From: an uncultured Spirochaetota bacterium
GTDB lineage: Bacteria; Spirochaetota; Spirochaetia; SZUA-6; Fen-1364
Assembly (NCBI GenBank): GCA_963745235.1
Contig: CAVUXE010000081.1
Coordinates: 1-48,128 of the forward strand
Reading direction: 5' to 3'
Length of the DNA stretch: 48,128 bases
Under the pieces are notes generated by a model. That model did not search any database. It was not told where the DNA came from and saw nothing but the letters and a program-made list of their open reading frames with translations. Made by a program: the position numbers and the translations under genes. The stretch's first letter is position 1; each line of letters opens with the position of its first letter. Of this stretch, positions 14,267-40,899 are shown one piece after another.

Positions 14267-15079
14267 ATGTGTGAACGGAAAGTGATCGGCGTTTCCCTTT
14301 TGTTTTTCGCTTTCATCCTGTTGACCACATGTCAGCTGCAGCTCAACAAAGCCGGCAATGGGTTTACCCTACGAGTATTAATTCCGGGAAACGCTTCCGA
14401 CGGAATAAAAAGTACCCCCACCCTTGCCTCGAACGCGAAGGACCTGTCGGGTGGGACTAGCGTTACGGTGACGATCATCACCCAAACGGGTTCAACGTGG
14501 GCAAGCTCCGGGCTTATCTCCATAGGTGGAAAAACCAGTGTCGATTACTCAGTTGTCTTGCCGCCGCCAGGCGTGTATCAAGTCTCCGCACAGTTGCTAG
14601 ATGGATCGGGGAATGTTATTTCCCAGGCGTCAACCACGTTTACCGTGCCGTCGCAAACAAACCTTGTGGTTCTCACCATGACATCGGCCGCTCCTTTGGG
14701 GGGAGGGATTCAGCTTGCATGGTCAGCAAGTATCTCGGGCCCCTTTACGGCAATAACAAATGGTGACTATTCGGTTCCCTACTCGAACGTGTATTCTGAC
14801 AACACTTGGCCTCAAATTTACTATTACCAGATCACTAACACCTCTTCTACAGAATCGCTGGGCGTGGGGCCCGCAACAGTCACAAACAACACGGGGTCCG
14901 TCTTTTCTGTTAACGTCCCCCCTACATCACCAGTCCCCCCGAGTGGGACAGAGATTTTTGAAGTTCAGGCCGTCTACGAAGGTGGGAACACCTACACAGA
15001 GACGGTCACGCTAAAAACAACATCGACGAACCCGCCTGATCAGACCTTCACTTTCACGGTTACTGACTTCCAAAGCTGA
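14267..15079 (+). CDS. Lipoprotein type B: conserved N-domain plus ASH/choice-of-anchor-D-like Ig domain
   Basis: Signal ending LTTC; Ser/Thr-rich beta protein. The first ~140 aa are homologous to 18010-18735 and 37437-38198. Confidence 0.8.
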   Translation: MCERKVIGVSLLFFAFILLTTCQLQLNKAGNGFTLRVLIPGNASDGIKSTPTLASNAKDLSGGTSVTVTIITQTGSTWASSGLISIGGKTSVDYSVVLPPPGVYQVSAQLLDGSGNVISQASTTFTVPSQTNLVVLTMTSAAPLGGGIQLAWSASISGPFTAITNGDYSVPYSNVYSDNTWPQIYYYQITNTSSTESLGVGPATVTNNTGSVFSVNVPPTSPVPPSGTEIFEVQAVYEGGNTYTETVTLKTTSTNPPDQTFTFTVTDFQS

Positions 15080-15086
15080 GCTTCTT

Positions 15087-16877
15087 GTGGCGATACCGGA
15101 TGAGAGTCGCGACGCCGAGCAGTTCATTGCCGCAGGCATTGAAATACAGCCTGCGGCAAGCGGCATGACTTGGGCGATCAACAAACGCGCAGGCACCATC
15201 GAACTTTTGGATGACTCCGCTGCAGTCTTGCTACAGTACCTGGATCGCTGGCGTTCGCTGCAGAGCCATGTTGCTGCAGTCGCTGAGGCTGGGGTGGGAG
15301 GCCAGGCGAGCGGAATGATCGAAGAGCTTATTGTGGAACTTTTGCATCGCGGTCTTCTCATTTCTCGCTCCCAATTCACTGACGCCTTGCGATCAAGCAC
15401 TAGACCTACAGTCTCGCCTGCAATCAACGTGATGTCATGGTGTACTAAAGATCGCCCCGCCGAGCTCGCCCACAGCATGGAAAGCTTCCTCAGCAGCGCC
15501 GCGCGTCATGGTCATGCGCCGCAGATTCTGGTTTGCGATGATTCGCGAGATCAAGCAGTGCAGGAGAAAAATCGATCGACTGTTGCGAAGGCAGGACGGG
15601 AACATGGGCTCACAACCCGCTATCTCGGATTGAAGGAAAAACAGTACATCGCCAGTGAGCTTCTTTCCCGTAATAGCGATATTCCTCCGGAGATTCTTGA
15701 GTTTGCACTCTTTGGTCTCCGAGGCTTTTCGGACACCACGGGCGCAAACCATAATGCCATGCTTTTGGCCACCCGGGGACAGATCGTGTTCAACACCGAC
15801 GATGACACCCTCTGTGAGTTTGCCAGGAGCCCGGACGCGGAAGCGCAGGGCTTTGAGTTGTCCTCTGCGCCCGATCCCACGGTGTCCTCCTTTTATCTGG
15901 ACTCGACTTCCTTCGCTGAAGGAGTCGCGTTCGAAGATTCGGACATTCTATCCACCCAGGCCGCGCTAATAGGAGGCATCAGCAGCGATCGTTTCCCGTC
16001 CGCCCCGCGCATCGACGCCATGACAGCACAGTTCGTGCATCGGCTCATGAATCGGACCTGCAGAGTTGCAGCAGTGGCCTGCGGAGTCGGCGGCGACTGT
16101 GGTCTCTGGGATCCCCGTTTTCTGCTGCGACTGACGACAGGCTCCCGCGACAGGCTCATTCAGTCAGAAGCTACTTACTACGCCGCATCGAGCAACCGGC
16201 TCCTCCTGCGCGTTGTGCCGCGCGCCACGGTGAGCAGCAGCACGTTCTTTCAGGCTATGTGCGTTACCCTTGACAACAGCCTGCTCTTGCCGCCTTTCTT
16301 TCCTGTTGGACGCGGCTTCGACGGCATCTTTCCCCAGACGATGCGTACGCTCCTGCCTGATCTTTTCATCGCACATGTCCCTCTGGCTGTGAGGCACGAG
16401 CCGCCTACACTGCGGCAATTTGAGCCCGGCTCCATCCGACGGATGACGTTCCGATTTTCTGAGCTTATCAACCTCGTTCTGGCCGATCGCGCGGCCCACG
16501 TGAGCCTTGCTTCCGCGGCTGACGCCCTTGAGGACGCCGGCCGATTTTTGGAAGAACTCGCATCCCTTCCAAGCGGGGATTACCTTGCATACGTCAGGAG
16601 TCGCTACCTCGCGCACCTCAGCCGTTATATCGCGGACCTTGAGACTCTATTGGCCGAACACAAGGCCCGCCCTAGGTTCTGGGCCGAGGATGTTGAGAGC
16701 CTCCTGGAGACCCTGGTTAAGCTACCTACGCGCGAGGATTTCTGTATTCCATTAGACCTGAAGAACGGGCGAAACGACGAGGAAGTGCTGACACTTGCCC
16801 GCCAGCTCACCGACCGATTCGGCGGGCTGCTTTCAGTCTGGCCAGAAATGCTCGAAGCTGCAGCACACATCCTTTAA
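15087..16877 (+). CDS. GT-A-fold glycosyltransferase-like protein with PqqD/RRE-like N-terminus (596 aa)
   Basis: CTKDRP, VCDDS, GANHN and TDDD motifs; paralog of 35601-37430; no signal peptide. Confidence 0.7.
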   Translation: MAIPDESRDAEQFIAAGIEIQPAASGMTWAINKRAGTIELLDDSAAVLLQYLDRWRSLQSHVAAVAEAGVGGQASGMIEELIVELLHRGLLISRSQFTDALRSSTRPTVSPAINVMSWCTKDRPAELAHSMESFLSSAARHGHAPQILVCDDSRDQAVQEKNRSTVAKAGREHGLTTRYLGLKEKQYIASELLSRNSDIPPEILEFALFGLRGFSDTTGANHNAMLLATRGQIVFNTDDDTLCEFARSPDAEAQGFELSSAPDPTVSSFYLDSTSFAEGVAFEDSDILSTQAALIGGISSDRFPSAPRIDAMTAQFVHRLMNRTCRVAAVACGVGGDCGLWDPRFLLRLTTGSRDRLIQSEATYYAASSNRLLLRVVPRATVSSSTFFQAMCVTLDNSLLLPPFFPVGRGFDGIFPQTMRTLLPDLFIAHVPLAVRHEPPTLRQFEPGSIRRMTFRFSELINLVLADRAAHVSLASAADALEDAGRFLEELASLPSGDYLAYVRSRYLAHLSRYIADLETLLAEHKARPRFWAEDVESLLETLVKLPTREDFCIPLDLKNGRNDEEVLTLARQLTDRFGGLLSVWPEMLEAAAHIL

Positions 16878-16907: not shown

Positions 16908-17972
16908 TTATCGGTTCTCCTGAGCACTCCACACATGGCTCTCCGATAAGTCGGTGTCATCACCGTCACTGCCGCTAATCAAGGCCTCCGGTTCTCCTCT
17001 AATTTTTGGCTCAGCCCCCGGATGCGGTCTTCTATCGCGCCAAGTCACGAAGCGAATCAGTTTTGAGAACTTCCGCACTCCGCGAAAAAGCAGGCTCCTC
17101 CTCTCCACTTTTTTGTACTTCTGCGCGATCAGCGGGTCTATGTAGATAAAGGGAGGGAGGCGAAGCTCGTTCTTGCAGCTTAGAGTCGGATGAAAATACC
17201 GTGCAGAGAACCTCATATGGATCCCTGAGCCATCAGCGCCCATGTTGTTCACAAGGGATTCGACCGGAACAAGGCAGACGGCGTTGTGAATGAACTGGGT
17301 GTAAGTCCACCGGATGGCCCAGGAATCGACTTGACCGTGCATCTGCGCATCCAGCATGCCCGGCAGGTCAAGCCCACTTTCCCGAAATGAGCGCTTCCAC
17401 GACTCGTTCTTGCTCAGGGAAGCATAGTCACGGATTTGCCAGTCAGCCTTTTCCCATCTGTCCCGCCAGGTTCCCCACCCCCAGCACATGTGTCGCGAAA
17501 CGAAAAATGCGTCGTAGGGATATCCGGCGGGGATGCGGAAAACCCTTTGAGGGTAATTGTACCCGCTGATGCTGAAGACCCCTGGTGCCGATCGGTAGAG
17601 GTCAAGGGCTCGGTTCATGTAGCGAAGGAATGTTGGTGACACGACCAGGTCATCCTCGACTACAACAACCTGCTCATGGCGTTTGAGGACCTGTGTGATG
17701 CCATCGATGATGTTTCCTGAAAGCCCCCAGTGATGATCTCTTTCGACGATGTGCACCTTGAGAAACCCGGAAGTCGCTCGAGAAGCTATCCGCCTAACTT
17801 CCTCGACGAGGAGAATGTCCACCCCATCCCGGGGGCCGTCCAGGAAACAATAAAGAGTTGTCCTTGAAGATTCGGCGTTCTTGTGCAGGCCGGAGATGCA
17901 TTCTTCGAGATGATGAGGGCGATTATAAGCAAACAGGGCAATTGAAGGGTCCCCGTTGATAGGCATTCTCAC
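16908..17972 (-). CDS. Glycosyltransferase (GT-A, family 2-like)
   Basis: IALFAYNRP, FLDG, VVEDD, CWGWGTW and NxGxDGSG motifs. Confidence 0.88.
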   Translation of the reverse strand: MRMPINGDPSIALFAYNRPHHLEECISGLHKNAESSRTTLYCFLDGPRDGVDILLVEEVRRIASRATSGFLKVHIVERDHHWGLSGNIIDGITQVLKRHEQVVVVEDDLVVSPTFLRYMNRALDLYRSAPGVFSISGYNYPQRVFRIPAGYPYDAFFVSRHMCWGWGTWRDRWEKADWQIRDYASLSKNESWKRSFRESGLDLPGMLDAQMHGQVDSWAIRWTYTQFIHNAVCLVPVESLVNNMGADGSGIHMRFSARYFHPTLSCKNELRLPPFIYIDPLIAQKYKKVERRSLLFRGVRKFSKLIRFVTWRDRRPHPGAEPKIRGEPEALISGSDGDDTDLSESHVWSAQENR

Positions 17973-18009: not shown

Positions 18010-18735
18010 TTATCCTCCATTCGGCTGATAGGTGTAGGTCGACGAAGTGGTCCCATCTGCCGACGTCACCACGATGACTACTGGGTAATTGGTGGCTGGG
18101 ATCGTGTATAAGCCGGCAGCAGGTGAAATAACAGTTCCGTTTTGTATCACAGTGATCGACGCGCTTGGATCCACGGCACTCACCGTCAAGTAAATCGGAA
18201 ATAAGTAGGTACTCGTAGTGTAGGGGCCGTATGCCACGGGAGTGAATGGTGGGTTCATTGGATATTGGAGGCCCGTAGAGTCGGTAACGACCATCGTGTA
18301 CAAATTCGACGGCATGGTCAGCACCACTGGATTGGTTTGCGTTGGCACCGTAAAAGAGGTAGGCCCTGCTTGAGACAGAAGGTTCCCAGATGCATCCATT
18401 AGCTGAGCCGAGGCCTGATAGGCACCTGGCGGCGGCAATGGAACCGTGAAATTGACGCTAGTTTTTCCACCCGTGGCAATGGGCTCGGAGTTCGCCCACG
18501 GCACACCTGCCTGGGTCTGGATCGCCACCTGAACGCTTGCCCCGCTTGGACCAGCGACGTCTTTGGCGCTAGCAGCATTATTAGCGCCAACACTTCGTGC
18601 TCCACTGGAGATGCTTCCCGGGACAATAACGTGCAGCGCAAGGCCCTTGGATTGATTCAGCTGCAGCTGGCAGGTGGTCAAAACGCTGAAGGCCAAGAGC
18701 AGCAGGAAAGCTCCGATTACCCTTTGTCTATTCAC
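18010..18735 (-). CDS. Lipoprotein type A: conserved N-domain plus cadherin-like beta-sandwich
   Basis: Signal ending LTTC; C-terminal DPSASITV...VVTSADGTTSSTYT pattern. Confidence 0.8.
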   Translation of the reverse strand: MNRQRVIGAFLLLLAFSVLTTCQLQLNQSKGLALHVIVPGSISSGARSVGANNAASAKDVAGPSGASVQVAIQTQAGVPWANSEPIATGGKTSVNFTVPLPPPGAYQASAQLMDASGNLLSQAGPTSFTVPTQTNPVVLTMPSNLYTMVVTDSTGLQYPMNPPFTPVAYGPYTTSTYLFPIYLTVSAVDPSASITVIQNGTVISPAAGLYTIPATNYPVVIVVTSADGTTSSTYTYQPNGG

Positions 18736-18736
18736 C

Positions 18737-19462
18737 TCAGTTTACCGTCACTGTCATCGTCGCAAGCCCTGCCGCAGCGGGAAGAACATTCGGCGGCGTC
18801 AAGTTATCCGTGTAGGCGCCCAAGGTCCAACCGCCTTCATGAGAGCTCGCCCACCACAAAAGGTCGCTTGGGATCCAACCGCTTGAGGAGTGCTGCGTAA
18901 TAATCTGATCTGGCAACCTGAGGTGGCCACTGTCACCAACGGCTCCAAACATCCCCGGCCCCACGCTGATTTCCTGGCCCGTCGCGTTACTGACAAGGTA
19001 AACGTGACCGCTTATTCCTTCCGCCTGATCCTCGACATCGACGCCAAAATTGAACTCTGTCCCACGAACGGCAGCTGTCGCAATAGGCCCAACGACCGTA
19101 AAGTCATTCTTTTCCCCAGACCCTGCTTTCACCGCGGCGTTTATCCTCCCCACCCGCAGGGTCAGTGCCGTGACGTTTGTCGTGTCCTTTTTGACCAGCT
19201 CTCGAAGAAGCATCCGCGTCAAAGGCTGGATTGTGATTTCCGTTTGGCCAAGCTCCAGGGTAAGCCGGGAGGAGAACCCGGTGGATACCGTTGCTCCCTG
19301 GGATACGATCATGTTCAGCTGGACTGGCTGCCAGTCCTGGTCCGGCTGTTTCACCTCGACTTTCCCTGAGAACTGCTTGACAACCGCCTGCAGCTGTTGC
19401 GCCGAAGCTGCCATCGGGAAGAGTAGGAAAAGCGTCAGCAGGAACAAAGACACTTTGCGCAT
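18737..19462 (-). CDS. Exported FecR-domain protein with Trp-rich tail
   Basis: Signal peptide (AASA/Q) and FecR signature ATAAVRGTEF. Confidence 0.85.
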   Translation of the reverse strand: MRKVSLFLLTLFLLFPMAASAQQLQAVVKQFSGKVEVKQPDQDWQPVQLNMIVSQGATVSTGFSSRLTLELGQTEITIQPLTRMLLRELVKKDTTNVTALTLRVGRINAAVKAGSGEKNDFTVVGPIATAAVRGTEFNFGVDVEDQAEGISGHVYLVSNATGQEISVGPGMFGAVGDSGHLRLPDQIITQHSSSGWIPSDLLWWASSHEGGWTLGAYTDNLTPPNVLPAAAGLATMTVTVN

Positions 19463-19474: not shown

Positions 19475-20833
19475 TCAGAAGTTGACCATGACATTCAGTC
19501 CCGTTTTGAATTGCACTCCCGCACCGGAGGCGAAAGCCGTCCCGGGGACAAAGACGCCGCCCCAAAGGGAAGTCCCCACATCAGAGAGAGGGCTGTAGTT
19601 AATGCTTAGATCCATTTCGGAGCCCAGGTAGGAGCTCGCACTCCCGGGGGCAAGGCCTGGTTCGCTGATCGCCCCTGTAGTGGGGCGGAAGTATGCATCC
19701 GCCTGCAGACCCGTTTGAAGTTTCGAAAGAGGTTTCAGAGAGTAGCTTGCCTCCGCAACGAGGATATTTGACAGCTGCGGCGAGAACACGTTGTCCAACG
19801 TCGGCCGCGATATCGGGATGAAAACAGAAAAGCCCTGACTCTGGCCTTCAGCGACCGTGCTGGCGTTGGGATCACCACTAGCGTACAAAACTCGCACCCC
19901 GATAACAGAAGACAAAGCCTCGGGAAGAAAAACTCGCACCCCACCGCCTGCAAGAGCCGCGAAGAAAAGGATACTCTGATAGCTTCCGCTCTGGTAGGAG
20001 AGCATCTGCCCTGATTCAAGATACGAAAAGACATCATAGTAAAGGTTGCCGACAATGTTTCCGCTCATTCCCAGGCCCACGTACTGCGTGTTGACGTGAC
20101 CACCTTCCGCTGGCTCGTCCGTCGTTGATCCCTCCGATACAAGCGATTCGGCGTTGCCATCCGCTAGATCAAGCGGCGTTCCACGCAGATCCTGTTGTGC
20201 GATTGCGGAGACCGCAAGCCTTTGCCCGGGCAGCGCGAGAAGAGTGGCCTGGACAAGCTCGATCACACGCGGTGAGGCAAAATTGACGCCGGTGTTTGTA
20301 TAATCGTTGAGGTCGGACTTCGAGAGCTCTATCGTCGAAGCTCCCTTTGTCACCAGCCCTGTATAACCCGCGGCGACGTTCAAAGATATCCCAGAGAACT
20401 CCAGGTCTACGAGTAGGCCATCTGCTTCGTGAGAAAGCACCCTGGTGGTGAAGTCGGAAAGTACGAGACGACCGACGGTGAACTGCAACTGTCGAAGGGC
20501 TCCATTCAGCTGGTAGCTGCCGTGCAAGTTCAGCAAGTCGGCGTTTGCATAGAGGAGTAGCGTGTTGAAAGGCAGAACCGGAGCTGTGTTGAAGGTGCCA
20601 TCAACCTGAACGTTCAAGGACAAACTATCGCTGAAGGCCGCCTGAACCCACCCTTTCAGCACATCCTCCTGCACGAGCCCTGGCGAGGTGCCCGGGACAG
20701 CGCCCGCGCCGGAGGAATTGCCCACTCCTGTGAGATTGAAGAAGGTGCCGCCAAGATCAATACTACCGGCGCCTGCCGAAACACCGAGGATCATGGCAAA
20801 GCCCACGACAGAGAGAAGTCTCAGCAGACGCAT
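19475..20833 (-). CDS. Predicted outer-membrane beta-barrel protein
   Basis: Signal peptide, amphipathic strands, YLGSEMDL motif (alginate-export-like) and C-terminal Phe (LNVMVNF). Confidence 0.8.
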   Translation of the reverse strand: MRLLRLLSVVGFAMILGVSAGAGSIDLGGTFFNLTGVGNSSGAGAVPGTSPGLVQEDVLKGWVQAAFSDSLSLNVQVDGTFNTAPVLPFNTLLLYANADLLNLHGSYQLNGALRQLQFTVGRLVLSDFTTRVLSHEADGLLVDLEFSGISLNVAAGYTGLVTKGASTIELSKSDLNDYTNTGVNFASPRVIELVQATLLALPGQRLAVSAIAQQDLRGTPLDLADGNAESLVSEGSTTDEPAEGGHVNTQYVGLGMSGNIVGNLYYDVFSYLESGQMLSYQSGSYQSILFFAALAGGGVRVFLPEALSSVIGVRVLYASGDPNASTVAEGQSQGFSVFIPISRPTLDNVFSPQLSNILVAEASYSLKPLSKLQTGLQADAYFRPTTGAISEPGLAPGSASSYLGSEMDLSINYSPLSDVGTSLWGGVFVPGTAFASGAGVQFKTGLNVMVNF

Positions 20834-20834: not shown

Positions 20835-21314
20835 TCAGACTTTCTCCTTCCAGTCGAGAACGGCACCGAGAATCCACATCACCTCTTCTCCGGAGACGAC
20901 TCGATTCGGGTGAGTGTATCCCTTCAAGAGTCCCAACGAGGCCAGTTCTCGCGTCGCATAACGCGGGCCAGGAAAAAGGGAGTAGAACAACCCTCCTTTG
21001 ATTCCCTGGGTTTCCATAATGAGATAGCAAACCTCGCCAAGCGTTACCGGATCTACCGGCGAAGGTGTTTTCGGCAGAAGCTTCTTCTCCGCAACCGCGG
21101 CTGCCGCATCCTCACCTGTGGCACCCTCAGGGACAAAACCGACGGCAGACAGGATGACGTATGCAGCGTCTCCGAACATCGCGGGCTTTTCCGCAAGCAA
21201 ACGATCGATGGTTTGGTTCGATTGCGCAGTAAGGTTTGCTGCGCAGGCAAGCAACAGAACGACCACAAGGTGGAATCGCCTCAGGTGAGAGCATTTAAGC
21301 GAGTTCTTTAACAT
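20835..21314 (-). CDS. Small exported protein, possibly SLH-like
   Basis: Signal ending A/QSN; motifs PVTLGEVCYLIM and VSGEEVMWILG; paralog at 40420-40899. Confidence 0.75.
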   Translation of the reverse strand: MLKNSLKCSHLRRFHLVVVLLLACAANLTAQSNQTIDRLLAEKPAMFGDAAYVILSAVGFVPEGATGEDAAAAVAEKKLLPKTPSPVDPVTLGEVCYLIMETQGIKGGLFYSLFPGPRYATRELASLGLLKGYTHPNRVVSGEEVMWILGAVLDWKEKV

Positions 21315-22232: not shown

Positions 22233-22607
22233 TCAGGTGCCGTTAGCTTTTCTCTCGTCCCGTTCGATCATTTCAGCGAGCTTTCGCACTTGATCTTCAC
22301 TTAGCTGTTTCTTATTGATGGCTCGCATCAATAGGGGGATCGCGGCATTTCTCCTCACGTGCTGCATATGCTCAGGAATAATACCGTTTTCATGTGCTGC
22401 CAATTCGAACAGCCTCTCTCTTGCTTCCCCTTCCAGTTGGAGTACACTAGCCAATTTGTTGAGACTCTCCTGCTTCTGAGGTGGCCGTGTCTTGCCAACT
22501 TCGATACGAGAAAGATAAGCACGATGAAGACCTGTTCTCCTGGCGAGTTCACTCGGCCAGATTCCTTTTTCGTCCATTAGCTGTTTGACATACTCTCCAA
22601 AAGTCAT
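22233..22607 (-). CDS. XRE-family HTH regulator
   Basis: MTFGEYVKQL...ELARRTGLHRAYLSRIEVG. Confidence 0.88.
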   Translation of the reverse strand: MTFGEYVKQLMDEKGIWPSELARRTGLHRAYLSRIEVGKTRPPQKQESLNKLASVLQLEGEARERLFELAAHENGIIPEHMQHVRRNAAIPLLMRAINKKQLSEDQVRKLAEMIERDERKANGT

Positions 22608-22976
22608 ATTGCCACGCTTTTCTTCGCTGATTTCTTTCAAGCTGTTGTTGCAATAAAACGTCATCAAAGAAACGCCAGGCGTCAAGGGTGAGCAGATTCA
22701 GCAAATCAGCACCCGTGGATCAGATCGGAGGCACACACCTCTTGACCACGGTCGTCTATTGATCAGAACGTCCGCCTTCCAGGGGCCGCACCGGGCTCCT
22801 GACTCGGGGTCAATCACAGCACTGCAAGCTCGGAATAGGTTTCCGCCGCCAAGATCGACGTGGCACAAAGAACTGGGACTGATCAAATTTGAAGTAGACC
22901 TAAACCCCGTTATGGGAACCAGTACGCCGCTGCCTTTCTGTTGCCAAAAAGCACACAAAGTGCTAATTTCTGATCG

Positions 22977-23760: not shown

Positions 23761-24505
23761 GCCCTCACCACGGCGGCCTACCGTAGCGCCCTCAGAGGCT
23801 TCCTGGACAGCGGCCAGGCGGTCACCGTTGAGGGATTCGCCGCGTACATCCACCAGCTGCGTCGCACGCGCTCGGCGGCGACCGTGAACCAGGCCCTCGC
23901 AGCCGGCCCTTGGACTTCCTGCAAAGGAGATCTCGCTCATCCGCGGAGCGCTGGGAGAAATCCCGGCTGTGAAGAAATCCCCGCCGGACGTTTCGGTGGT
24001 CTCGCCGGAGGAGCGGTTGGCGCTCTTCGCTGCGTTGCCGTTGCGAATGCGGCTGGTGGCCGAGACGCTGTACGCAACCGGGGCTCGCGTGATTGAGGTC
24101 CTCACGGTGAGAAGGGACCAGGTCAAGACGAACGGTGCCAGTGGCACCGTGGAGCTCAGGCTCTACGGCAAGGGCGGCAAGGAGCGGAGCTCAAGGATCC
24201 CCGCGGAGCTCTACAAGAGGATCCTCCAGGTGTTCCCGCGGGGCACGTACCTGTTTGAGAGTAGCCACAAGAAGCACTTCAGGAGGGAGTACATATCGAG
24301 AGAGATCGCGCGGGCTGCGCGGCGGGTACTTGGCCGCGCTGTCTCAGCTCACGTGCTGCGGCACTCGCGGGCGACGGACCTGGTGGCGGCAACGCACAGA
24401 ATCAAGGCGGTCTTGAGGCTGCTCGGGCATTCGGACGAGGCGACCACGTTGCGCTACTATGTACACGACGCATTCAGCGATGAGGACCTGTTCGGGGGGA
24501 TGTAG
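23761..24505 (+). pseudogene. Third tyrosine recombinase, frameshifted
   Basis: Catalytic domain TGARVIE/GKGGKER/HVLRHS/LGH/TLRYY (23969-24505). The SAM-like part (TAAYRSAL...SAATVNQALAA) lies in another frame, with a break near 23910-23925. Confidence 0.8.
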
Positions 24506-25714: not shown

Positions 25715-25716
25715 GT

Positions 25717-31550: not shown

Positions 31551-33336
31551 CTGCGGTCTCGCAGCGAGCAATAGGGATCTCGATCCATGCGCGTGTACCG
31601 GTGCCAAGCTTGCTCTCGATAGACAGCCCAAAAGGGGTCCCGTAGTAAAGCCGGATCTGCGTGTTGATGTTGCAAAGCGCAAACGCGACGTTGCCGTCAT
31701 TTCCGCCGCCTTCCAGGTCTGCGTGGATTGCAGCGAGCCTCTCCGGTGCGATCCCCTTCCCATTGTCCGTAACCTGGAATCGAAGGGAATCGCCAATATG
31801 GGCGAAAGAGACATCTACCATCCCGTCGCTCGTCGTGTCCGCAAGACCATGTATCACGGCGTTCTCCACAAGGGGCTGGAACAAGTACTTCAGGACGTGG
31901 AGGTCTTCAAGTGACGCATCAACGCTGCATTGATACCGGAAATCTCCCGGTCGCCTGACGAGCTGTATATCCATGTAGCTCTCGATGATCTGCATGATCT
32001 CCTTGACCCGGACCACGTCGCGCCCGTTGCTCAGGCTCAGCGAGTAGAACCTGGAGAGCGAGAAGACGACATCCGAGATCTCTTTCACGCCGTGCTTCCG
32101 GGCGAGCCAGTGAATGCAGTCCAATGTGTTGTACAGAAAGTGCTCGTTCAACTGGGAGAGCACCATCTTGAGTTGGGCATCTTTCCGCCCGAGCTGGATC
32201 AGGTAGTTGTCGTCGATCAAACGCTTCAGGTCGCGGACCGTGCGATTGAATCCCTCGTAGATATACCCGACTTCGTCTTTGCGCGTGGAGTCCAGCGCTA
32301 CGGTGAAGTCTCCCGCTGCTAGTGACTTCATGGCAAGGAACAGGGTGTTGAGCGGACGGTAGTAGCTGAGGTATGTGATCAGGGCCATGGCCACAAATAC
32401 GACGAAAAGCCCCACGTAGGTGTAGGCGATGCTCGTTAGCACGATGGGAACGAATGAGTTGACCTCGCGCAAGGGTAACACCGCGACGTAGCTGAGACCC
32501 GACTGCGGCGATACGTGACGGGCAACAAGAGAGGGCCCGGAGTCAAGGGCTACCGTGAGATAGTCCTTTCCCTCGGGGTCACTGGCGAACGCAGTGGCCG
32601 TCTTCCTGATTTCAGCCGCGCTCATGGCGCCGAGCGACACTGCAACGTTGCCCAAGCTGTCCAAGACGTACGATCGGCCGGCTCGCCCCAGGTTGATCTT
32701 GTTGAAGACCGCCTCCACCACAGCTGTGGCGATGTTGAGGGACAGGATACCCTTCGTCGACCATCCGTTCGTATTGACCCGAACGAGACGGTAGATGCTG
32801 AGCACGCTTTCTCCATTTGTCAATCCGGTGTTGACGGTCCACCACGACCGGTTCTCCACTTTCAGGTAGTTCCTGTACCATTCCGTCTCGGCGATATCGA
32901 CATCTCTTGGCTTCTGCAGATCTGCCCGGGCGACAATGGCGACGTGGTTGGCAATGTCGAGGTAGGTGAGAGATTGGATGTAGTTATTGCTCAAGTAGGC
33001 CTTGCCGAGAATTTCCTCGAGTTGCCGCATCCGCAGCAGGTCTGAATAGCTCGAGACCGGGTTGAGAAAAGCCAAATCCCGAGCCAGATCCATGAAGCTC
33101 TGGTTCGTGAGGAGCGGAGTGAAAACAAACTCGACGTTCTTCGTGATCTCGTCCACGCTCGCCGCGACGGTGCGAAGATTCCCGAGCGCATACTCGCCAG
33201 CACTTCGGATCGCTTGGTCCTTGAGCCGTGCAAGAACAACGGCTCCGGCGGCTGCAAGGCCCAACACCGCAACGAACACGAGCATCATGTACTTGAATTT
33301 GATGCTGTACAAACGACGGTAGGTCGCCACGCGCAA
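31543..33336 (-). CDS. YesM-type sensor histidine kinase
   Basis: TM-sensor-TM-HAMP layout with QLNEHFLYNTL, QPLVENA and DNGKG motifs. Confidence 0.93.
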   Translation of the reverse strand: MRVATYRRLYSIKFKYMMLVFVAVLGLAAAGAVVLARLKDQAIRSAGEYALGNLRTVAASVDEITKNVEFVFTPLLTNQSFMDLARDLAFLNPVSSYSDLLRMRQLEEILGKAYLSNNYIQSLTYLDIANHVAIVARADLQKPRDVDIAETEWYRNYLKVENRSWWTVNTGLTNGESVLSIYRLVRVNTNGWSTKGILSLNIATAVVEAVFNKINLGRAGRSYVLDSLGNVAVSLGAMSAAEIRKTATAFASDPEGKDYLTVALDSGPSLVARHVSPQSGLSYVAVLPLREVNSFVPIVLTSIAYTYVGLFVVFVAMALITYLSYYRPLNTLFLAMKSLAAGDFTVALDSTRKDEVGYIYEGFNRTVRDLKRLIDDNYLIQLGRKDAQLKMVLSQLNEHFLYNTLDCIHWLARKHGVKEISDVVFSLSRFYSLSLSNGRDVVRVKEIMQIIESYMDIQLVRRPGDFRYQCSVDASLEDLHVLKYLFQPLVENAVIHGLADTTSDGMVDVSFAHIGDSLRFQVTDNGKGIAPERLAAIHADLEGGGNDGNVAFALCNINTQIRLYYGTPFGLSIESKLGTGTRAWIEIPIARCETADA

Positions 33337-33692: not shown

Positions 33693-34646
33693 TCAAGCGA
33701 TGTCGGCGATCCGGCTCGCCTCCTGCGCCAGTCTCCGCAGCGCCTCCTTCAGTTCCGTCGGCTCTCTTACTACGAACGGCATGCGCAGCCCCATGAGGTA
33801 ACGAGCCCCATAGTCGAGGTCGTCTGTCGGCCACTCGAAAGCCACCCCGCCATCCACTTTCGTAAGGGTTCCATAGGAAGCCGGCATTCGCTTCCGAATC
33901 CGTGACAGCTCGACATCGAAGACCACCCTGATCCGCCACTTGGCCCGGATGTTTTCCAGGTACTCGACGGCGTACGCGCGGAAATCGAACTGCTCGTTTT
34001 TGTGGAAGCGCTCATCGAGAAGGCGGGTCTTTCTCATCCTATCCAGGCGAAATGTCCGGTAGTCTTTCCGCAAGCGGCAGTAACCGACCAGATACCACCT
34101 GCCTCGCCGGCCGACCAGACCATATGGCTCCACCATCCTGCGGGTGAGCTCATCGCTCTCAGACCGATAGGTGATCTGCACGCACTGCCGTGTCTGGACA
34201 GACTCGCTCAGGAGAATGAGCAGGGAGGCGTCGGGTCGGGCTTCCTCCCGGTAGGGAGAGAGAATCACCAGTGAGGAAATAGCCCTTACTCTCTCCCGCG
34301 CACCTTGGGGCAGTACCCGCGTGATCTTGGAGAGCGCTTCTTCCACCACTGCCTGGGACTGCCCGATTTCCAGCCATGAACTCCCCAGCAGCCCCAGCAC
34401 GATGGCCACGGCCTCTTCCTCGCTGAACATGAGAGGCGGCAGCTTGTAGCCGGCCCGCAACTGATAACCGCCAAAGCAGCCAGGCGTCCCTTCGACCGGT
34501 ATTCCCACGTCCTGCAACTTTGCAATGTAGCGGCGGACCGTGCGGACGTCCGTTTCCAAGCGCGCGGCAAGCTCCGGCCCGGTGAGCCCCGGCCGCGACT
34601 GCAGAAGCTCGAGAACCGTCAAGACACGCCCCGTAGGGTGGTACAT
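33693..34646 (-). CDS. YafY-family HTH-WYL transcriptional regulator
   Basis: RTVRRYI HTH, LPPLMF and WYLVGYC...FRLDR motifs. Confidence 0.95.
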   Translation of the reverse strand: MYHPTGRVLTVLELLQSRPGLTGPELAARLETDVRTVRRYIAKLQDVGIPVEGTPGCFGGYQLRAGYKLPPLMFSEEEAVAIVLGLLGSSWLEIGQSQAVVEEALSKITRVLPQGARERVRAISSLVILSPYREEARPDASLLILLSESVQTRQCVQITYRSESDELTRRMVEPYGLVGRRGRWYLVGYCRLRKDYRTFRLDRMRKTRLLDERFHKNEQFDFRAYAVEYLENIRAKWRIRVVFDVELSRIRKRMPASYGTLTKVDGGVAFEWPTDDLDYGARYLMGLRMPFVVREPTELKEALRRLAQEASRIADIA

Positions 34647-34669
34647 ACGGGGAACCTCCAACAAAAAAA

Positions 34670-35600: not shown

Positions 35601-37430
35601 TTAGACCGGCACAATCAATTCTTTCCCTGACTCGCGAAGAGACTGGGCAGCGGTGCGGATTTCCCTCCAGGATTCGAGAAGTTCTCCGAAAAGATCAACG
35701 AGCCGCCGGCTGAGCGAAATCACTTCCGATCTCTCCCTTCCCTCCCGGAGGTCGGCAGGAATGCAGAAGTCAGGCTCAGTAGGAAGCTCTTGCAATCGCT
35801 CAATATGGGATTCGACGTCCTTTGCCCAGAAATCAGGTTCATGTCCATAGATCGCCAGCAGTCCGTCCAAGTACTCCACATAACGACTGAGGTTGGATAG
35901 GCACGAGCCTCGGATGAACTGAAGAAAGTCCTGATCCGTAAGACTTGAAATGTCCTGAAGGAAGCGCCCAGCTTCTTCCAAGCGGTCCATCCCTTGAACA
36001 GCTCGGGCGCTTTTTTCAAATGCGGAGAGGAGGAGGTTCATGACTTCTGAAATGCGAATCGGCAGGTCCGTCACACTTCCCGGCGCCAAACTGCGTTTCT
36101 CTGGGGGTTCGTGATGGATTGCCCAAGGAAGATAGGCAATATACAAGTCGGGGAAGCAGGACCGAAGTGTCTGGCCGAAAACTGCATCACTACTTCTTCC
36201 CACTGGGAAGAAGGGAGGGAGGGGGAGAAAATTGTCCAGACCAACGCACATAGTCTGGCAATAGGTTGAGTTCCCGATTGTCGTTCGGGGTGCCGCTCGT
36301 ACTATCAGTCTGTTCGCAAGGGCTGCATGATAGATAGATTCAGAACCAAGAAGCCTGTCACGTGCAAGACCCTGTAGCGTAAGCATATGACGCGGACCTA
36401 CTAGGCCGCTGTCCCCGCATGTTCCCATGGCAGCCACGGCGATAGTGCCTCCGGACGTCACGAGAGACTGCGCAAACTGTGTCGAACATCTTGCAAGAAG
36501 CGGCGCGCGCGACTGTCCTTGGATACTCGCCTGGGCCACGCATTCACCAATAGAACGACCGAGGACCCCTTTTAAAGTGTCACGGATGTCAAGTTTCCTG
36601 AACTCCACTGCAGCGTCAAGAGCTTCTTTATTTTCGAAAAAGAGGAAATCGCTAGGGTCCGCTGCGGAAGAGAGCTCCACAGTGTCATTCACGGTAGCAC
36701 TCCGTGCGAACTCGCAAATGGTGTCATCGTCAGCGCTGACCGTCGCATCGCCGATTGTTGAAAGGAGTTGAGCGTTGTGGTTGGCGCCAGTAGTGATTCC
36801 CACCTCTCCCATTCCGAAAACCGCGAATCTGACCACATCCGGATTGATTCCATCGCCTCGAGCGAGGATCTCCTGAGTAAGCTTTTTCTTCTCGCTCTCC
36901 CCCATGTAGCGAATCTGCGGCGAAATATGCCGAAGTGCGTCACGGTTTTGCTTTCTCGCGCTTTCACTAGTGGAGTCGTCAAACACGACCAAGACTGGGA
37001 CATCATCAGAGGGCAAAAAGCAATCGGAAAAGCTGGCGATACTTCGTGCCAACTCATTGGGCCTGTCGCGCGTGCACCAGGTTACGGATGCTATGTGGGT
37101 CTTCCGTTCCACTCCTGGCTGGCGTGTCAGTAAGCCGACAAAACTCGCCCTTGAGACAAGCAGTCCGAGATCGGCAAGATGCCGGAGCTGCGAAAGTACC
37201 GACGATGGATTGAGGCCGCTGATTCCCACTTCCTCAAGGGAGGCGACATGTCTCTCCAATTTGCGCCATTCAGAGAGATGTGGGAGTAAAGCAGAAAGAT
37301 AATCATCGAGCAGGAGTACCGAGCCAGAAAGTCTGTTATGGACCCAAGAACGTCCACTGCCGGCTGGATGCACTTCCAGGCCTGCAGCGATATAGAGCTC
37401 GTCCGAATCCCGCACGGTATCTTGGTCCAA
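35601..37430 (-). CDS. GT-A-fold glycosyltransferase-like protein with PqqD/RRE-like N-terminus (609 aa)
   Basis: CTRDRP, FDDS, GANHN, ADDD and PPFFPVGR motifs; paralog of 15087-16877. Confidence 0.7.
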   Translation of the reverse strand: MDQDTVRDSDELYIAAGLEVHPAGSGRSWVHNRLSGSVLLLDDYLSALLPHLSEWRKLERHVASLEEVGISGLNPSSVLSQLRHLADLGLLVSRASFVGLLTRQPGVERKTHIASVTWCTRDRPNELARSIASFSDCFLPSDDVPVLVVFDDSTSESARKQNRDALRHISPQIRYMGESEKKKLTQEILARGDGINPDVVRFAVFGMGEVGITTGANHNAQLLSTIGDATVSADDDTICEFARSATVNDTVELSSAADPSDFLFFENKEALDAAVEFRKLDIRDTLKGVLGRSIGECVAQASIQGQSRAPLLARCSTQFAQSLVTSGGTIAVAAMGTCGDSGLVGPRHMLTLQGLARDRLLGSESIYHAALANRLIVRAAPRTTIGNSTYCQTMCVGLDNFLPLPPFFPVGRSSDAVFGQTLRSCFPDLYIAYLPWAIHHEPPEKRSLAPGSVTDLPIRISEVMNLLLSAFEKSARAVQGMDRLEEAGRFLQDISSLTDQDFLQFIRGSCLSNLSRYVEYLDGLLAIYGHEPDFWAKDVESHIERLQELPTEPDFCIPADLREGRERSEVISLSRRLVDLFGELLESWREIRTAAQSLRESGKELIVPV

Positions 37431-37436: not shown

Positions 37437-38198
37437 CTAAGAAGGGTTGACGAGAAAGACAAAAGGGGTATTTGACGGATCGCTCGTACGAAGGGTAACA
37501 GTCTCACTTCCGCTTGGCCCCGAATTGTTGACCATTTCGATAGCGAAATCGGCAGTGCCGCCTGGCGGTATCGGAGTGGATGGCAGCTGCGATGAGATAA
37601 TGTATTCCCCGTAAGTATCCGTCATTGTTACAGGACTGCTCCCAAAAGGATAGAGAGTGTTCGAACTGTCAGCGTTATTGACTTGGAACACTATCGGCGT
37701 GCCTAGGGCGTTAATCGCGTAAGTAAAGCCCTGGCTCACCGCCGTCGACGGGTTCGTAGGGCCTGCGGGGAAGTAGCTCACAACCACTTGTCCCGACGAG
37801 ACGCTGAGGGTCACGGGGTTGGTTTGGACCGGCACCGAAAACGGAGTTGAGGCTTGAGAAATGAGGCTCCCAGATCCACCAAATAGCTCTGCCGAGGCCA
37901 GATACGAACCAGTCGGCGGCAAACTAAATGAGTAGCTGACGCTGCTTCCATTTATGTCGAGCAGCGGAGAGGTTGCCCACTGTGTACCTGCCTGAGTAGT
38001 GATAGTCAGTGTTACTCCTGTCCCACCCGCCAGCGACTTGGCGCCATTTGCACTCCTTGCCCCGCCGGAGACACTCGCGGGAACGAGCAGTCGTATGCCA
38101 AGCCCTTTGCCTTCGTTGTTGAACTGAAACTGACATGTAGTCAAAATCATGAATGCAGAAAAGAGAAGGAGAAATCTGATCGCTTTCCGTTCGTGCAT
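37437..38198 (-). CDS. Lipoprotein type B: conserved N-domain plus ASH-like Ig domain
   Basis: Signal ending LTTC; PIPPGGTADFAI...TVTLRTSDP motif. Confidence 0.8.
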   Translation of the reverse strand: MHERKAIRFLLLFSAFMILTTCQFQFNNEGKGLGIRLLVPASVSGGARSANGAKSLAGGTGVTLTITTQAGTQWATSPLLDINGSSVSYSFSLPPTGSYLASAELFGGSGSLISQASTPFSVPVQTNPVTLSVSSGQVVVSYFPAGPTNPSTAVSQGFTYAINALGTPIVFQVNNADSSNTLYPFGSSPVTMTDTYGEYIISSQLPSTPIPPGGTADFAIEMVNNSGPSGSETVTLRTSDPSNTPFVFLVNPS

Positions 38199-38199
38199 C

Positions 38200-38320
38200 T
38201 CAGTTACCCTCTTTCTGATAGTCCCTCAAGGAGACAATAGCGGCGCGGCAAGGCCCTTGGACTGATTCAGCCGCTGCCAAGAATAGCAGAAAAACCCGAG
38301 TCGCTTTTTGTTTACTCATC
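38200..38320 (-). pseudogene. Deletion remnant of a type A lipoprotein gene
   Basis: GCTGAATCAGTCCAAGGGCCTTGC matches the 5' part of the 18735 gene (GCTGAATCAATCCAAGGGCCTTGC). The lipobox and gene body are deleted. Confidence 0.75.
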
Positions 38321-38321
38321 T

Positions 38322-39047
38322 TTAGTTCACCGTCACTGTGATTGTAGCAAGCCCCGACGCGGCGGGAAGAACATTCGGCGTCGTCAAGTTGTCCGTATAC
38401 GCGCCCAAGGTCCAACCGCCTTCATGAGAGCTGGCCCACCACAAGAGATCGCTCGGGATCCAACCGCTTGAGGAGTGTTGCGCAATAATCTGTTCGGGCA
38501 AGGTCAGGTGGCCGTTCCCGCCTACGGCTCCGAACATGCCTGGCCCAACACTGATTTCCTGGCCAGTAGCGTGACTGATCAGGTAAAAGTGCCCGCTGAC
38601 GCCCTCCCCTTGATCGTCTGTGTCGACGCCAAAATTGAACTCCGTCCCGCGAACGGCAGCTGTCGCAACAGGCCCAACAACCGTAAAGTCATTCCTTTCG
38701 CCCGACACTGCCTTCACCGCGGCGTTTATCCTTCCCACCCGTAGGGTCAGCCCCGTGACGTTCGTCGTTTCCTTCTTGATCAGCTCTCGGAGGAGCATCC
38801 GCGTCAAAGGCTGGATTGTGATTTCCGTTTGGCCAAGCTCCAGCGTAAGCCGGGAGGAGAACCCGGTCGAGACCGTCGCTCCCTGGGATACGCTCATGTT
38901 CAATTGGACCGGCTGCCAATCCTGATCCGGCTGCTTCACCTCGACCTTGCCAGAGAACTGCTTGACAACCGCCTTCAGCTGTTGCGCCGAAGCTGCGAGT
39001 GGGGAGAGAAAGACGAGCACTAGCAGAAAGAAAGACAATTTGCGCAT
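38322..39047 (-). CDS. Exported FecR-domain protein (copy 2)
   Basis: ATAAVRGTEF; paralog of 18737-19462. Confidence 0.85.
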   Translation of the reverse strand: MRKLSFFLLVLVFLSPLAASAQQLKAVVKQFSGKVEVKQPDQDWQPVQLNMSVSQGATVSTGFSSRLTLELGQTEITIQPLTRMLLRELIKKETTNVTGLTLRVGRINAAVKAVSGERNDFTVVGPVATAAVRGTEFNFGVDTDDQGEGVSGHFYLISHATGQEISVGPGMFGAVGGNGHLTLPEQIIAQHSSSGWIPSDLLWWASSHEGGWTLGAYTDNLTTPNVLPAASGLATITVTVN

Positions 39048-39059: not shown

Positions 39060-40418
39060 TTAGAAGTTGACCATTACATTCACTCCCGTCTTGAACTGCA
39101 CACCCGCACCAGATGCGAAAGCCGTCCCCGGGACGAAGAGGCCACCCCATAGGGACGACCCCACATCAGAGAGAGGGCTGTAATTGATGCTCAGGTCCAT
39201 TTCGGAGCCCAGATAGGAGCTCGTACTCCCTGAGGCAAGGCCCGGTTCGCTGATCGCTCCCGACGTCGGACGGAAGTAGGCATCCGCCTGTAGACCCGTT
39301 TGAAGTTTGGACAACGGCTTTAGAGAGTAGCTTGCCTCAGCAACTACGATATTAGACAATTGCGGCGAGAATACGTTATCCAGCGTTGGCCGTGATATCG
39401 GAGTAAAGACAGAAAAGCCCTGGCTCTGGCCTTCAGCAACCGTGCCTGCGTTGGGATCTCCGCTCGCGTAAAGAACGCGCGCCCCGATGACGGAGGAGAG
39501 AGCGCCGGGAAGGAAAACACGCACCCCACCGCCTGCAAGAGCTGCGAAGAAAAGGATGTTCTGATAGCTTCCACTTTGATAAGAGAGCATCTGGCCTGAT
39601 TCAAGATACGAGAACACGTCGTAGTAGAGGTTACCGACAATATTCCCGCTCAGTCCTAGACCCAGATACTGTGTATTCACCTGGCCGCCTTCCTCGGGCT
39701 CGTCCATTGTCGATCCATCTGATACAAGCGATTCAGCGCTGCCATCCGCCAGATCCAGAGCCGTTCCTCTGAGGTCCTGTTGCGCAATTGCTGAGACCGC
39801 GAGCCTCTGCCCGGGCAGCGTGAGAAGAGTTGCCTGGACGAGCTCGATCACGCGCGGTGAGCCGAAGTTGACGCTGGTATTTGTATAATCGTTGAGGTCG
39901 GACTTCGAGAGCTCAATCGACGAAGCTCCCTTTGTCACCAGCCCCGTATAACCTGCCGCGACGTTCAAGGATATCCCGGAAAACTCGAGATCCAGGAGTA
40001 CACCATCTGCATCATGAGAAAGCACCCTCGTAGTGAAGTCAGAAAGCACGAGACGACCGACGGTGAACTGCAACTGTCGAAGGGTTCCATTCAGCTGGTA
40101 GCTTCCGTGCAGGTTCAACAAGTCCGCGTTTGCATAGAGAAGCAACGTATTGAAAGGCAGAACCGGAGCAGTGTTGAAGGTGCCATTGACCTGAACGTTC
40201 AAGGATAAGTTGTCGTTGAACGCAGCCTGAACCCATCCCTTCAGCACATCCTCCTGCACGAGCCCCGGGGAGCTTCCCGGCACAGTAGCTGCACCTGAAG
40301 AATTGCCTACCCCCGTGAGATTGAAGAAGGTGCCGCCCAGATCAACGCTACCCGCCCCAGCAGTAATCGTGAAAATCACGGCAAAGCCCATTACAAAGAG
40401 ATGCCTTACCAGCCGCAT
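39060..40418 (-). CDS. Predicted outer-membrane beta-barrel (copy 2)
   Basis: Colinear with 19475-20833; ends VNVMVNF. Confidence 0.8.
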   Translation of the reverse strand: MRLVRHLFVMGFAVIFTITAGAGSVDLGGTFFNLTGVGNSSGAATVPGSSPGLVQEDVLKGWVQAAFNDNLSLNVQVNGTFNTAPVLPFNTLLLYANADLLNLHGSYQLNGTLRQLQFTVGRLVLSDFTTRVLSHDADGVLLDLEFSGISLNVAAGYTGLVTKGASSIELSKSDLNDYTNTSVNFGSPRVIELVQATLLTLPGQRLAVSAIAQQDLRGTALDLADGSAESLVSDGSTMDEPEEGGQVNTQYLGLGLSGNIVGNLYYDVFSYLESGQMLSYQSGSYQNILFFAALAGGGVRVFLPGALSSVIGARVLYASGDPNAGTVAEGQSQGFSVFTPISRPTLDNVFSPQLSNIVVAEASYSLKPLSKLQTGLQADAYFRPTSGAISEPGLASGSTSSYLGSEMDLSINYSPLSDVGSSLWGGLFVPGTAFASGAGVQFKTGVNVMVNF

Positions 40419-40419
40419 A

Positions 40420-40899
40420 TCAGACTTTCTCCTTCCAATCGAGGACGGCTCCGAGGATCCACATCACCTCTTCCCCCGAGACGACTCGATTCGGGTGAGT
40501 GTAGCCTTTCAGCAGTCCCAGCGAGGCCAGCTCCCGCGTGGCGTAGCGGGGACCGGGAAACAGGGTGTAGAACAATCCCCCCTTGATCCTCTGTGTTTCC
40601 ATGATGAGATAGCAGACCTGACCAAGCGTTGCAGGCTCTGTCGGCAAAGGGGTCTTCGACAGAAGCTTCTTCTCTGCGACCGCCGTAGTCGCATCCTCAC
40701 CGGTCGCGTTGTCAGGGACAAATCCCACTGCGGACAGGATGACGTACGCGGCATCTCCGAAGGTTGCTGGCTTTTCGTCTAACAAACGATCGACGGTCTG
40801 GTTCGATTGCGCAGCAAGGCTTGCCGCGCCTGCAAGCAACAGGACGATCCAAATTTGAAATCGCCGAATATGAAAATGACCGAACTCGCTCTTCATCAT
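40420..40899 (-). CDS. Small exported SLH-like protein (copy 2)
   Basis: The C-terminal half is almost identical to 20835-21314. Confidence 0.75.
   Translation of the reverse strand: MMKSEFGHFHIRRFQIWIVLLLAGAASLAAQSNQTVDRLLDEKPATFGDAAYVILSAVGFVPDNATGEDATTAVAEKKLLSKTPLPTEPATLGQVCYLIMETQRIKGGLFYTLFPGPRYATRELASLGLLKGYTHPNRVVSGEEVMWILGAVLDWKEKV

Follow-up and report, generated by a model that had tools for sequence, protein, structure and literature searches.

Closest described systems and the duplicated gene set

The outer-membrane tethers of the diderm Terrabacteria, namely OmpM, Mep45 and SlpA, couple an SLH domain to an outer-membrane barrel. OmpM has been presented as a tether that is at the same time a nutrient channel (PMC10628300). 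A second group of described systems, in which FecR domains recur beside CHASE2 sensors, is involved in envelope sensing. Both are relevant to a set of genes that is present twice in contig CAVUXE010000081.1 of an uncultured Spirochaetota bacterium (assembly GCA_963745235.1). The contig, 48,128 nucleotides (nt) long, was analysed as a whole and is called the window in the following. The set encodes a small secreted SLH-like protein, an outer-membrane beta-barrel, a secreted FecR-domain protein and a lipoprotein. To date, this four-gene outer-membrane module is known from Spirochaetota only. It is uncharacterised and probably serves as a sensor in the envelope or as a display device. All parts of the module belong to known families or folds, and as a whole it is a variant of the OmpM-like tether and of FecR/CHASE2 envelope sensing. 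The open-access literature that we searched contains no description of this spirochaetal module.

A Burkholderiales operon encodes a response regulator, a protein with LysM and FecR domains, a CHASE2 histidine kinase and a DUF4136 protein, and the same source calls the cues of CHASE2 domains unknown (PMC5192318). In S. meliloti, the CHASE2 cyclases CyaK, CyaD1 and CyaD2 cannot perceive their signal without NsrA, a barrel protein of the outer membrane (PMC7529298, PMC13001267), and the cyclic AMP (cAMP) regulator Clr targets a FecR-domain protein of the same regulon, SMc02177 (PMC5498481). In Campylobacterota, there are clusters of a CHASE2 cyclase and a FecR-domain outer-membrane protein (PMC9239204).

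In the window, the module is part of two minus-strand operons, copy A (21314 to 16908) and copy B (40899 to 35601). The open reading frame (ORF) tables agree with a first-pass annotation of the same DNA, which had reported one operon in two copies, copy A together with a further segment (14267 to 16877). In copy A, the intergenic spacers calculated from the coordinates measure 1, 12, 1, 37 and 7 nt; those of copy B measure 1, 12, 123 and 6 nt. In either operon, the last gene encodes a soluble protein of the GT-A glycosyltransferase type. Copy A is accompanied by an inverted cassette on the plus strand, with a second lipoprotein gene and a second GT-A gene, that is convergent to the operon. Copy B has no such cassette. 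The DNA upstream of copy A cannot be aligned with the DNA upstream of copy B. Scans for promoters and terminators gave 3 and 11 hits, compared to 3.6 and 10.1 in shuffled sequences, and neither exceeded expectation; searches for Rfam families and for tRNA genes gave no match.

The first-pass annotation had noted that the three upstream genes are strongly conserved between the copies, whereas the lipoproteins have diverged, and the data confirm this. By BLASTP, the small proteins are 81%, the barrels 90% and the FecR-domain proteins 88% identical at the amino acid (aa) level, compared to 41-56% for the lipoproteins and 41% for the 596 and 609 aa GT-A proteins. At the DNA level, the copies are 84% identical over 2591 nt (18692-21280 versus 38276-40865), and the block of identity ends just beyond the FecR stop codon. 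Synonymous divergence (dS) according to Nei and Gojobori is 0.82 for the small protein, 0.71 for the barrel and 0.50 for the FecR-domain protein, and the corresponding ratios of nonsynonymous to synonymous divergence (dN/dS) are 0.145, 0.072 and 0.129. Values of 0.5-0.8 for dS and of 0.07-0.15 for dN/dS indicate an old duplication, with both copies under purifying selection. Together with the recurrence of the gene order in other genomes, they exclude chance as an explanation for the duplicated set.

The three-gene core

The small protein (20835..21314 in copy A and 40420..40899 in copy B, both on the minus strand) has 159 aa in both copies. In copy A, translation is taken to start from the ATG at 21314, which has a GGAGG sequence upstream, and the product carries an N-terminal hydrophobic segment. 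The 98 homologues of the protein share the invariant signature GG..Y..FPGPRYA.RE. The description as SLH-like in the first-pass annotation finds some support in the fold, but none in the sequence. An AlphaFold2 (AF2) model, computed for the copy B protein, is confident (pLDDT 88.8). Among its 14 best Foldseek matches in the PDB, which have probabilities of 0.75-1.0, TM scores of 0.41-0.55 and E-values of 0.04-1, all but the third (an S-layer cytochrome) are SLH-domain structures, i.e. 13 of 14, with 3pyw, 6bt4 and SpaA-SLH among the top ones (TM 0.44-0.55). None of 500 Foldseek matches reaches an E-value of 0.001 or better. At the sequence level, the Pfam SLH family (PF00395) does not match any of 46 members of the small-protein family at E-values up to 10. 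The protein does not belong to any Pfam family at all, and a profile search of PDB sequences gave no match. In the Atlas, its nearest clusters are all unnamed and from Spirochaetota, and the nearest named cluster is SLH, with a weak score of 0.85.

Our best evidence for the role of the small protein comes from a relative, P0221 (578 aa), in which the small-protein domain (residues 31-157, 40% identity, E 1e-30) is fused to the barrel. The SLH-like part runs straight into the mature N-terminus of the barrel, without a second signal peptide in between. This is the architecture of OmpM, and the fusion suggests that the small protein serves as the periplasmic stalk of the barrel. The fusion is found in one of 196 proteins of the barrel set; in both window copies and in the three related loci described below, the small protein and the barrel are encoded separately. 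Among 150 barrel representatives listed, only P0221 and P0237 are longer than 500 aa. The latter (768 aa) is another long form of the barrel, with an unrelated N-terminal region of 358 aa that has a signal peptide and does not match any Pfam family. Compared to OmpM, the parts in the window differ in being encoded by separate genes, 1 nt apart, in having no Pfam SLH match and in having a PF13372 barrel. They also differ in that they come from a different phylum, Spirochaetota, and have genes for a FecR-domain protein and a lipoprotein attached.

The barrel (19475..20833 in copy A and 39060..40418 in copy B, minus strand) has 452 aa in both copies, with the start in copy A chosen by alignment with copy B. 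It matches the Pfam family Alginate_exp (PF13372) above the cut-off of 25.2 bits, both in copy A (38.6 bits, E 7.2e-10) and in copy B (33.7 bits, E 2.3e-8). The match is restricted to the C-terminal half of the model, approximately positions 199-387 of 395. The C-terminal phenylalanine, which the first-pass annotation had pointed out, is borne out by the sequence: the copy A barrel ends in VMVNF, and 128 of 196 proteins of the barrel set have a terminal Phe. The barrel has 49 close homologues, and a profile search retrieved 1589 representative clusters at E-values up to 1e-3, 389 of them at E-values up to 1e-30. It is not a characterised porin, and sequence searches of the PDB returned nothing usable for its profile.

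The FecR-domain protein (18737..19462 in copy A and 38322..39047 in copy B, minus strand; 241 aa) matches PF04773 in copy A (residues 58-145, E 4.5e-7, 30.7 bits) and in copy B (E 6.7e-7, 30.1 bits), in both cases above the cut-off of 24 bits. Searches of the PDB with its profile gave designed repeat proteins, with no stretch that passed. Its sole hydrophobic segment (residues 4-22) is followed by A-S-A|Q and looks like a cleavable signal peptide. The N-terminal cytoplasmic anti-sigma domain and the membrane helix of FecR were looked for in the 241 residues and are absent. The Gly-Thr motif is present, as R-G-T in three of four aligned FecR proteins and as R-G-C in the remaining one (locus L002 below). 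FoxR and LipL45 have been described as cleaving themselves at this motif (PMC13719327), and it is a putative self-cleavage site in the window protein as well.

In the FecA-FecR-FecI system, FecR acts in cell-surface signalling, and the window locus shares with it PF04773, the Gly-Thr motif and an outer-membrane barrel as a potential partner. In contrast to that system, the FecR-domain protein has no anti-sigma domain or membrane anchor, and the window has no extracytoplasmic function (ECF) sigma factor or TonB-dependent receptor. The first-pass annotation had already remarked on the absence of the last two, and Pfam finds neither of them among the 45 window ORFs that were scanned or among 34 ORFs of the related loci. 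The protein also resembles LipL45, Lsa33, Lsa19, LIC_10902 and LIC_20185, which are secreted or lipidated FecR-domain proteins of spirochaetes that also lack the anti-sigma parts. The NCBIfam models for two of them match the window protein far below their cut-offs (Lsa33, E 3.6e-10, 39.5 versus 420 bits; LipL45, E 1.2e-6, 27.8 versus 350 bits). In contrast to the window protein, the leptospiral proteins have been studied as adhesins, and the accessible text on them does not describe an operon with a barrel and an SLH-like protein.

Related loci and a possible route to CHASE2

A single genome scan, with two peptide patterns taken from an alignment of 14 sequences, matched 53 stretches, 3 of which encode a relative of the module. 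As only two patterns were searched, three loci are an understatement of the distribution. L001 stems from a metagenome-assembled genome (MAG) of Spirochaetia and has a barrel that is 72% identical to that of the window; L002 and L003 are from Spirochaetota MAGs, with barrels that are 47% and 42% identical, respectively. For the Pfam analysis of these loci, 34 of 94 ORFs of at least 170 aa were used, chosen as long and non-nested. The order small protein, barrel, FecR-domain protein is found in all three loci, with the L001 sequence stopping within the FecR gene. Thus, the genes co-occur elsewhere, and the recurrence supports the first-pass claim of a conserved set of barrel, adaptor and anchor. 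A lipoprotein gene follows the FecR gene in all four operons with downstream sequence, i.e. copies A and B, L002 and L003 (in the latter as two ORFs). The lipoproteins of L002 and L003 have no detectable kinship with those of the window (hhalign probability 3.3%, signal peptide only).

In L002 and L003, a gene for a protein with CHASE2 and Guanylate_cyc domains lies divergently upstream of the small gene. The first-pass annotation, whose interpretation is partly supported overall, had overlooked this conserved cyclase of the distant relatives, as well as the published associations of FecR and CHASE2, which speak for sensing more than for export. L002 and L003 have only six genes in common, namely those for the CHASE2 cyclase, the small protein, the barrel, the FecR-domain protein, the lipoprotein and a convergent protein that resembles outer-membrane proteins, whereas their flanks are unrelated. 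The cyclases are 61-63% identical between the two loci, more than the barrels (45%). In L002, the cyclase (6695..9734, minus strand) reads as two overlapping ORFs, compared to a single gene of 918 aa in L003, which could be due to a frameshift or an assembly error. The convergent gene (13585..14736 in L002 and 13579..14559 in L003, both on the minus strand) lies in the CHASE2/barrel block and encodes a protein with a signal peptide that is 54% identical between the loci and belongs to no Pfam family. The protein is Phe-terminal in L002 and has no homologue in the window.

The similarities to the NsrA-dependent cyclases and to the Campylobacterota clusters are that a CHASE2 cyclase has a functional or genomic link to an outer-membrane barrel protein and to a FecR domain, and that a cyclase gene stands beside the module in L002 and L003. 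In contrast to NsrA, which is described as having approximately 1200 aa, the FecR domain and the barrel of the module are separate small proteins. The module also has an SLH-like protein and a lipoprotein in addition; TPR and phosphodiesterase genes were not seen, and the window copies are without a nearby cyclase. The Burkholderiales operon shares with the module a wall-binding module, a FecR domain, a CHASE2 sensor and a further small envelope protein (PMC5192318). It differs in that the wall-binding part is LysM rather than SLH-like and is fused to FecR, in that there is no barrel, and in that the output is a histidine kinase. DUF4136 proteins are known as lipoproteins.

We favour a reading as a sensor because published FecR domains recur beside CHASE2 sensors. 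The module would then be an outer-membrane receptor on a tether, with FecR as the relay to a CHASE2 sensor and with the cassettes of lipoprotein and glycosyltransferase genes as lineage-specific parts, a scheme that we regard as a serious but tentative possibility. In such a receptor, the secreted SLH-like protein, with approximately 130 aa in its mature form, may serve as the periplasmic stalk or tether of the PF13372 barrel. The barrel and the lipoprotein would encounter a cue, either on the cell surface or within the envelope, and the FecR-domain protein, which has no anti-sigma part, would pass it on across the periplasm to an inner-membrane CHASE2 sensor. For the distant relatives, the sensor would be the adenylate cyclase that is encoded beside the module; in the genome discussed here, it may be encoded outside the 48 kb, or it may have been lost. 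The observations behind this scheme are the gene content and order, the duplication and its retention under purifying selection, the family and fold assignments, the fusion of stalk and barrel, and the synteny with CHASE2.

The physical complex is itself inferred, and so are the direction in which the signal travels, the part played by the lipoprotein, and the glycosylation. Several points weigh against the scheme. The CHASE2 link is seen at two loci of a sister clade only. It is found in none of the three operons of the window's own clade, because a CHASE2 homologue is absent from the window (tblastn and Pfam) and a CHASE2 cyclase from L001, including 10 kb upstream (Pfam). In a quick tree of 38 rows, from which P0001 (identical to window copy B), P0037 (identical to L003) and rows shorter than 430 aa had been dropped, the CHASE2-linked loci form a clade of 7 rows that is sister to a clade of 31 rows with the window copies and L001. 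Within the larger clade, copies A and B fall into one unresolved clade of 7 rows. Moreover, the cyclase gene is divergent from the module genes, and thus not in one operon with them, and a FecR domain in NsrA itself is putative. With respect to the stalk, the SLH likeness is one of fold only, and the fusion is a single metagenomic prediction. Finally, a variable lipoprotein beside a barrel would also be expected of a lipoprotein export machine, and the link between lipoproteins and glycosyltransferases is one of adjacency in this one window.

A more elaborate version of the receptor would be a split OmpM-like SLH-barrel tether that doubles as a CHASE2 receptor, with a self-cleaving FecR protein that has no anchor, and with an exchangeable lipoprotein, glycosylated in the cytoplasm, that sets the ligand specificity. 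In this full combination, it is decidedly unlikely. If it is correct, the module would represent cell-surface signalling without a sigma factor or TonB, and the first proposed set of ligand-side partners for orphan CHASE2 domains. CHASE2 is a widespread sensor domain, and the module beside the cyclases would offer a path, accessible to experiment, that leads from the outer membrane to cAMP. For the way in which outer membranes are tethered outside the Terrabacteria, an SLH-like stalk on a barrel of spirochaetes would be relevant as well.

Lipoproteins, glycosyltransferases and genomic surroundings

Three intact lipoprotein genes are present in the window. Lipoprotein 1 (18010..18735, minus strand) directly follows the FecR gene of copy A, lipoprotein 2 (14267..15079, plus strand) is the first gene of the inverted cassette, and the copy B lipoprotein (37437..38198, minus strand) has 253 aa. 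In each of them, inspection by eye finds a hydrophobic segment and, behind it, an L-T-T-C lipobox (residues 19-22). The mature N-domains are 52-59% identical, compared to 13-33% for the C-domains, and the C-domain of lipoprotein 1 has 13-25% identity to the other two. Over the first 144 residues, lipoproteins 1 and 2 are 56% identical; the identity of lipoprotein 2 to the copy B lipoprotein is 41%. Serine and threonine together make up 22% of lipoprotein 1, 27% of lipoprotein 2 and 25% of the copy B lipoprotein. The first-pass annotation had assigned an Ig fold to the lipoproteins. For this, there are weak leads only, namely a Pfam Cadherin-like match (E 0.02) and, for copy B, beta-sandwich lipoproteins in the Atlas (best score 0.84). 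In copy B, the 123-nt spacer between the FecR gene and the lipoprotein gene (38199..38321, minus strand) is a relic of a 5' end that can be aligned at the DNA level with the beginning of the lipoprotein 1 gene of copy A, except that approximately 26 nt are missing internally, the lipobox region among them. The relic indicates that lipoprotein cassettes were rearranged behind a stable three-gene core.

These data also fit an export or display machine for lipoproteins, as the first-pass annotation had proposed, in the style of Slam and TbpB or of SusC and SusD, in which the barrel would move or hold the lipoprotein and the FecR-domain and SLH-like proteins would act as adaptors. The conserved lipoprotein N-domain would be the docking part, and the variable C-domain the exposed part. 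Slam, SusCD and LptDE resemble the module in that a barrel gene adjoins a gene for a lipoprotein that varies between loci. A lipoprotein gene behind the FecR gene in four of four operons, despite unrelated products in the two clades, is what pairs of translocon and substrate look like, and the contrast between N- and C-domains and the relic of an exchanged cassette in copy B point in the same direction. A preprint on Borrelia LptD treats the way in which lipoproteins of spirochaetes arrive at the surface as unsettled (10.1101/2022.12.21.521298). This model accounts for the variable lipoprotein as well as sensing does. It is a rival to be reckoned with, although we consider it rather doubtful. 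It leaves the FecR domain, and the CHASE2 cyclase of L002 and L003, without a role, and it has to assume surface exposure of the lipoproteins. Slam is a barrel family with a periplasmic TPR domain, and among 12 proteins tested Pfam does not match the Slam barrel family or TPR. The module differs from Slam, SusCD and LptDE in the absence of a family match.

The SLH-like fold and the fused SLH-like-barrel form in one relative could also be taken at face value. The core would then be only a structural tether and diffusion channel, a split OmpM, and the FecR-domain protein, the lipoproteins and the glycosyltransferases would be mere neighbours. The breadth of the barrel family, with its 1589 representative clusters, is consistent with such a general role. 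However, spacings of 1-12 nt and an order with FecR-domain protein and lipoprotein that is conserved in two clades argue for one unit, and the test for the SLH sequence family failed for all 46 proteins. A mere tether is unlikely.

The first-pass annotation had also observed that every intact lipoprotein gene is followed by a GT-A gene. This is correct for all three, which are followed by genes for soluble GT-A proteins of two different families, and the relic in copy B fits the pattern. Lipoprotein 1 is followed by a GT2 enzyme (16908..17972, minus strand; 354 aa) that matches PF00535 above the cut-off (E 1.7e-6, 28.5 versus 23.3 bits). It also has a weak likeness to GnT-I, both to the family PF03071 (E 3.2e-4, below the cut-off) and to GnT-I structures (E 0.011). 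Lipoprotein 2 is followed by a protein of 596 aa (15087..16877, plus strand), and the copy B lipoprotein by one of 609 aa (35601..37430, minus strand). No Pfam family matches these two proteins or 17 relatives, and sequence searches of the PDB returned nothing usable for the profile of the 609 aa protein. Its AF2 model (pLDDT 87.6, pTM 0.89) has MtdL as the best Foldseek match (E 5.5e-6), followed by TarP, TarS, RmlT and UAM. There are 19 Foldseek matches at E-values up to 0.001, and every listed one is a GT-A protein. The 609 aa protein has only 19 homologues. The motifs DDS151-153 and DDD234-236 are invariant in 19 sequences, and both are common to the 596 and 609 aa proteins.

None of the three GT-A proteins has a hydrophobic segment, signal peptide or membrane segment, which indicates that they are cytoplasmic. 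Their location, the adjacency in three of three pairs and the Ser/Thr richness of the lipoproteins suggest that the lipoproteins are modified by these enzymes, each by its cognate one in the proposal of the first-pass annotation. Most likely, the GT-A enzymes add sugar to the Ser/Thr-rich lipoproteins while these are still in the cytoplasm and not yet exported, or make their sugar donor. If cytoplasmic enzymes act directly on the lipoproteins, glycosylation has to precede export. Such an order of events is known for some autotransporters and adhesins. The pairs in the window are a candidate example of exported lipoproteins that are glycosylated in the cytoplasm. The first-pass annotation had counted the glycosyltransferases among the parts of a conserved system. 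The related loci do not support this, as neither of the two with downstream DNA, L002 and L003, has a glycosyltransferase gene after the lipoprotein gene. The glycosyltransferase genes are lineage-specific additions.

With glycosyltransferase genes in both copies and a barrel that scores above the cut-off for Alginate_exp, the family of AlgE, one might think of export of a polysaccharide or glycoconjugate, with the barrel as the exit for a polymer made by the neighbouring enzymes. We consider this very improbable. The window barrel differs from AlgE in matching the C-terminal half of the family model only, a scan of 45 window ORFs revealed neither a polymerase, flippase or ABC exporter gene nor a Wza-like or alginate gene, and the glycosyltransferases are soluble and missing from L002 and L003. 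Finally, it is barely credible that the module is cargo of a mobile or defence island that acts in phage defence or exclusion, despite three integrase genes (at 7836, 11055 and 23969), a restriction-modification pair (9093-10872) and a Gp49/HTH pair immediately upstream of copy B, since PADLOC recognised none of 12 proteins, the regulator upstream of copy A has no kinship with that upstream of copy B, the duplication is old (dS 0.5-0.8), and the related loci lie in ordinary chromosomal surroundings.

Some of the neighbouring genes deserve a comment. The restriction-modification pair consists of an N6_N4 methylase (9093..10040) and a BsaWI-like endonuclease (9925..10872), and it lies between the integrase genes 7836..8906 and 11055..12011, so that the whole segment (7836..12011) resembles a small mobile island. 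The third integrase (23969..24505) is truncated. The pair of Gp49 (HigB-like) and helix-turn-helix (HTH) genes directly upstream of copy B (41023..41855, minus strand) is probably a toxin-antitoxin system; its HTH gene is unrelated to the one upstream of copy A (22233..22685). Beyond it, an oxidative-stress cluster (42027..45345) comprises genes for a Fur-family regulator, a catalase-peroxidase-like protein and a Dps/ferritin protein. Two ORFs in different frames (42510..44150 and 44165..44692) together make up the peroxidase gene, a split that could reflect a frameshift or a sequencing error.

The region between the two copies holds a carbohydrate-use locus (24581..33336) with a DUF2961 protein, an ABC sugar transporter and its binding protein, a xylose-isomerase-like TIM barrel, a Cache histidine kinase and an AraC-type response regulator, followed by a WYL-domain regulator (33693..34664). 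At the other end of the window, several genes are internally or mutually repetitive. Two chemoreceptor (MCP) genes (1..3497, plus strand) have signalling domains that are repeated at 78% DNA identity, 2505 nt apart, and two adjoining SCO1/SenC paralogues (12333..13871, plus strand) share a 97-nt stretch at 70% identity. An ankyrin-repeat protein of 844 aa (4941..7475, minus strand), which is unusual for a free-living spirochaete, is encoded by a gene with families of direct repeats of 87-287 nt.

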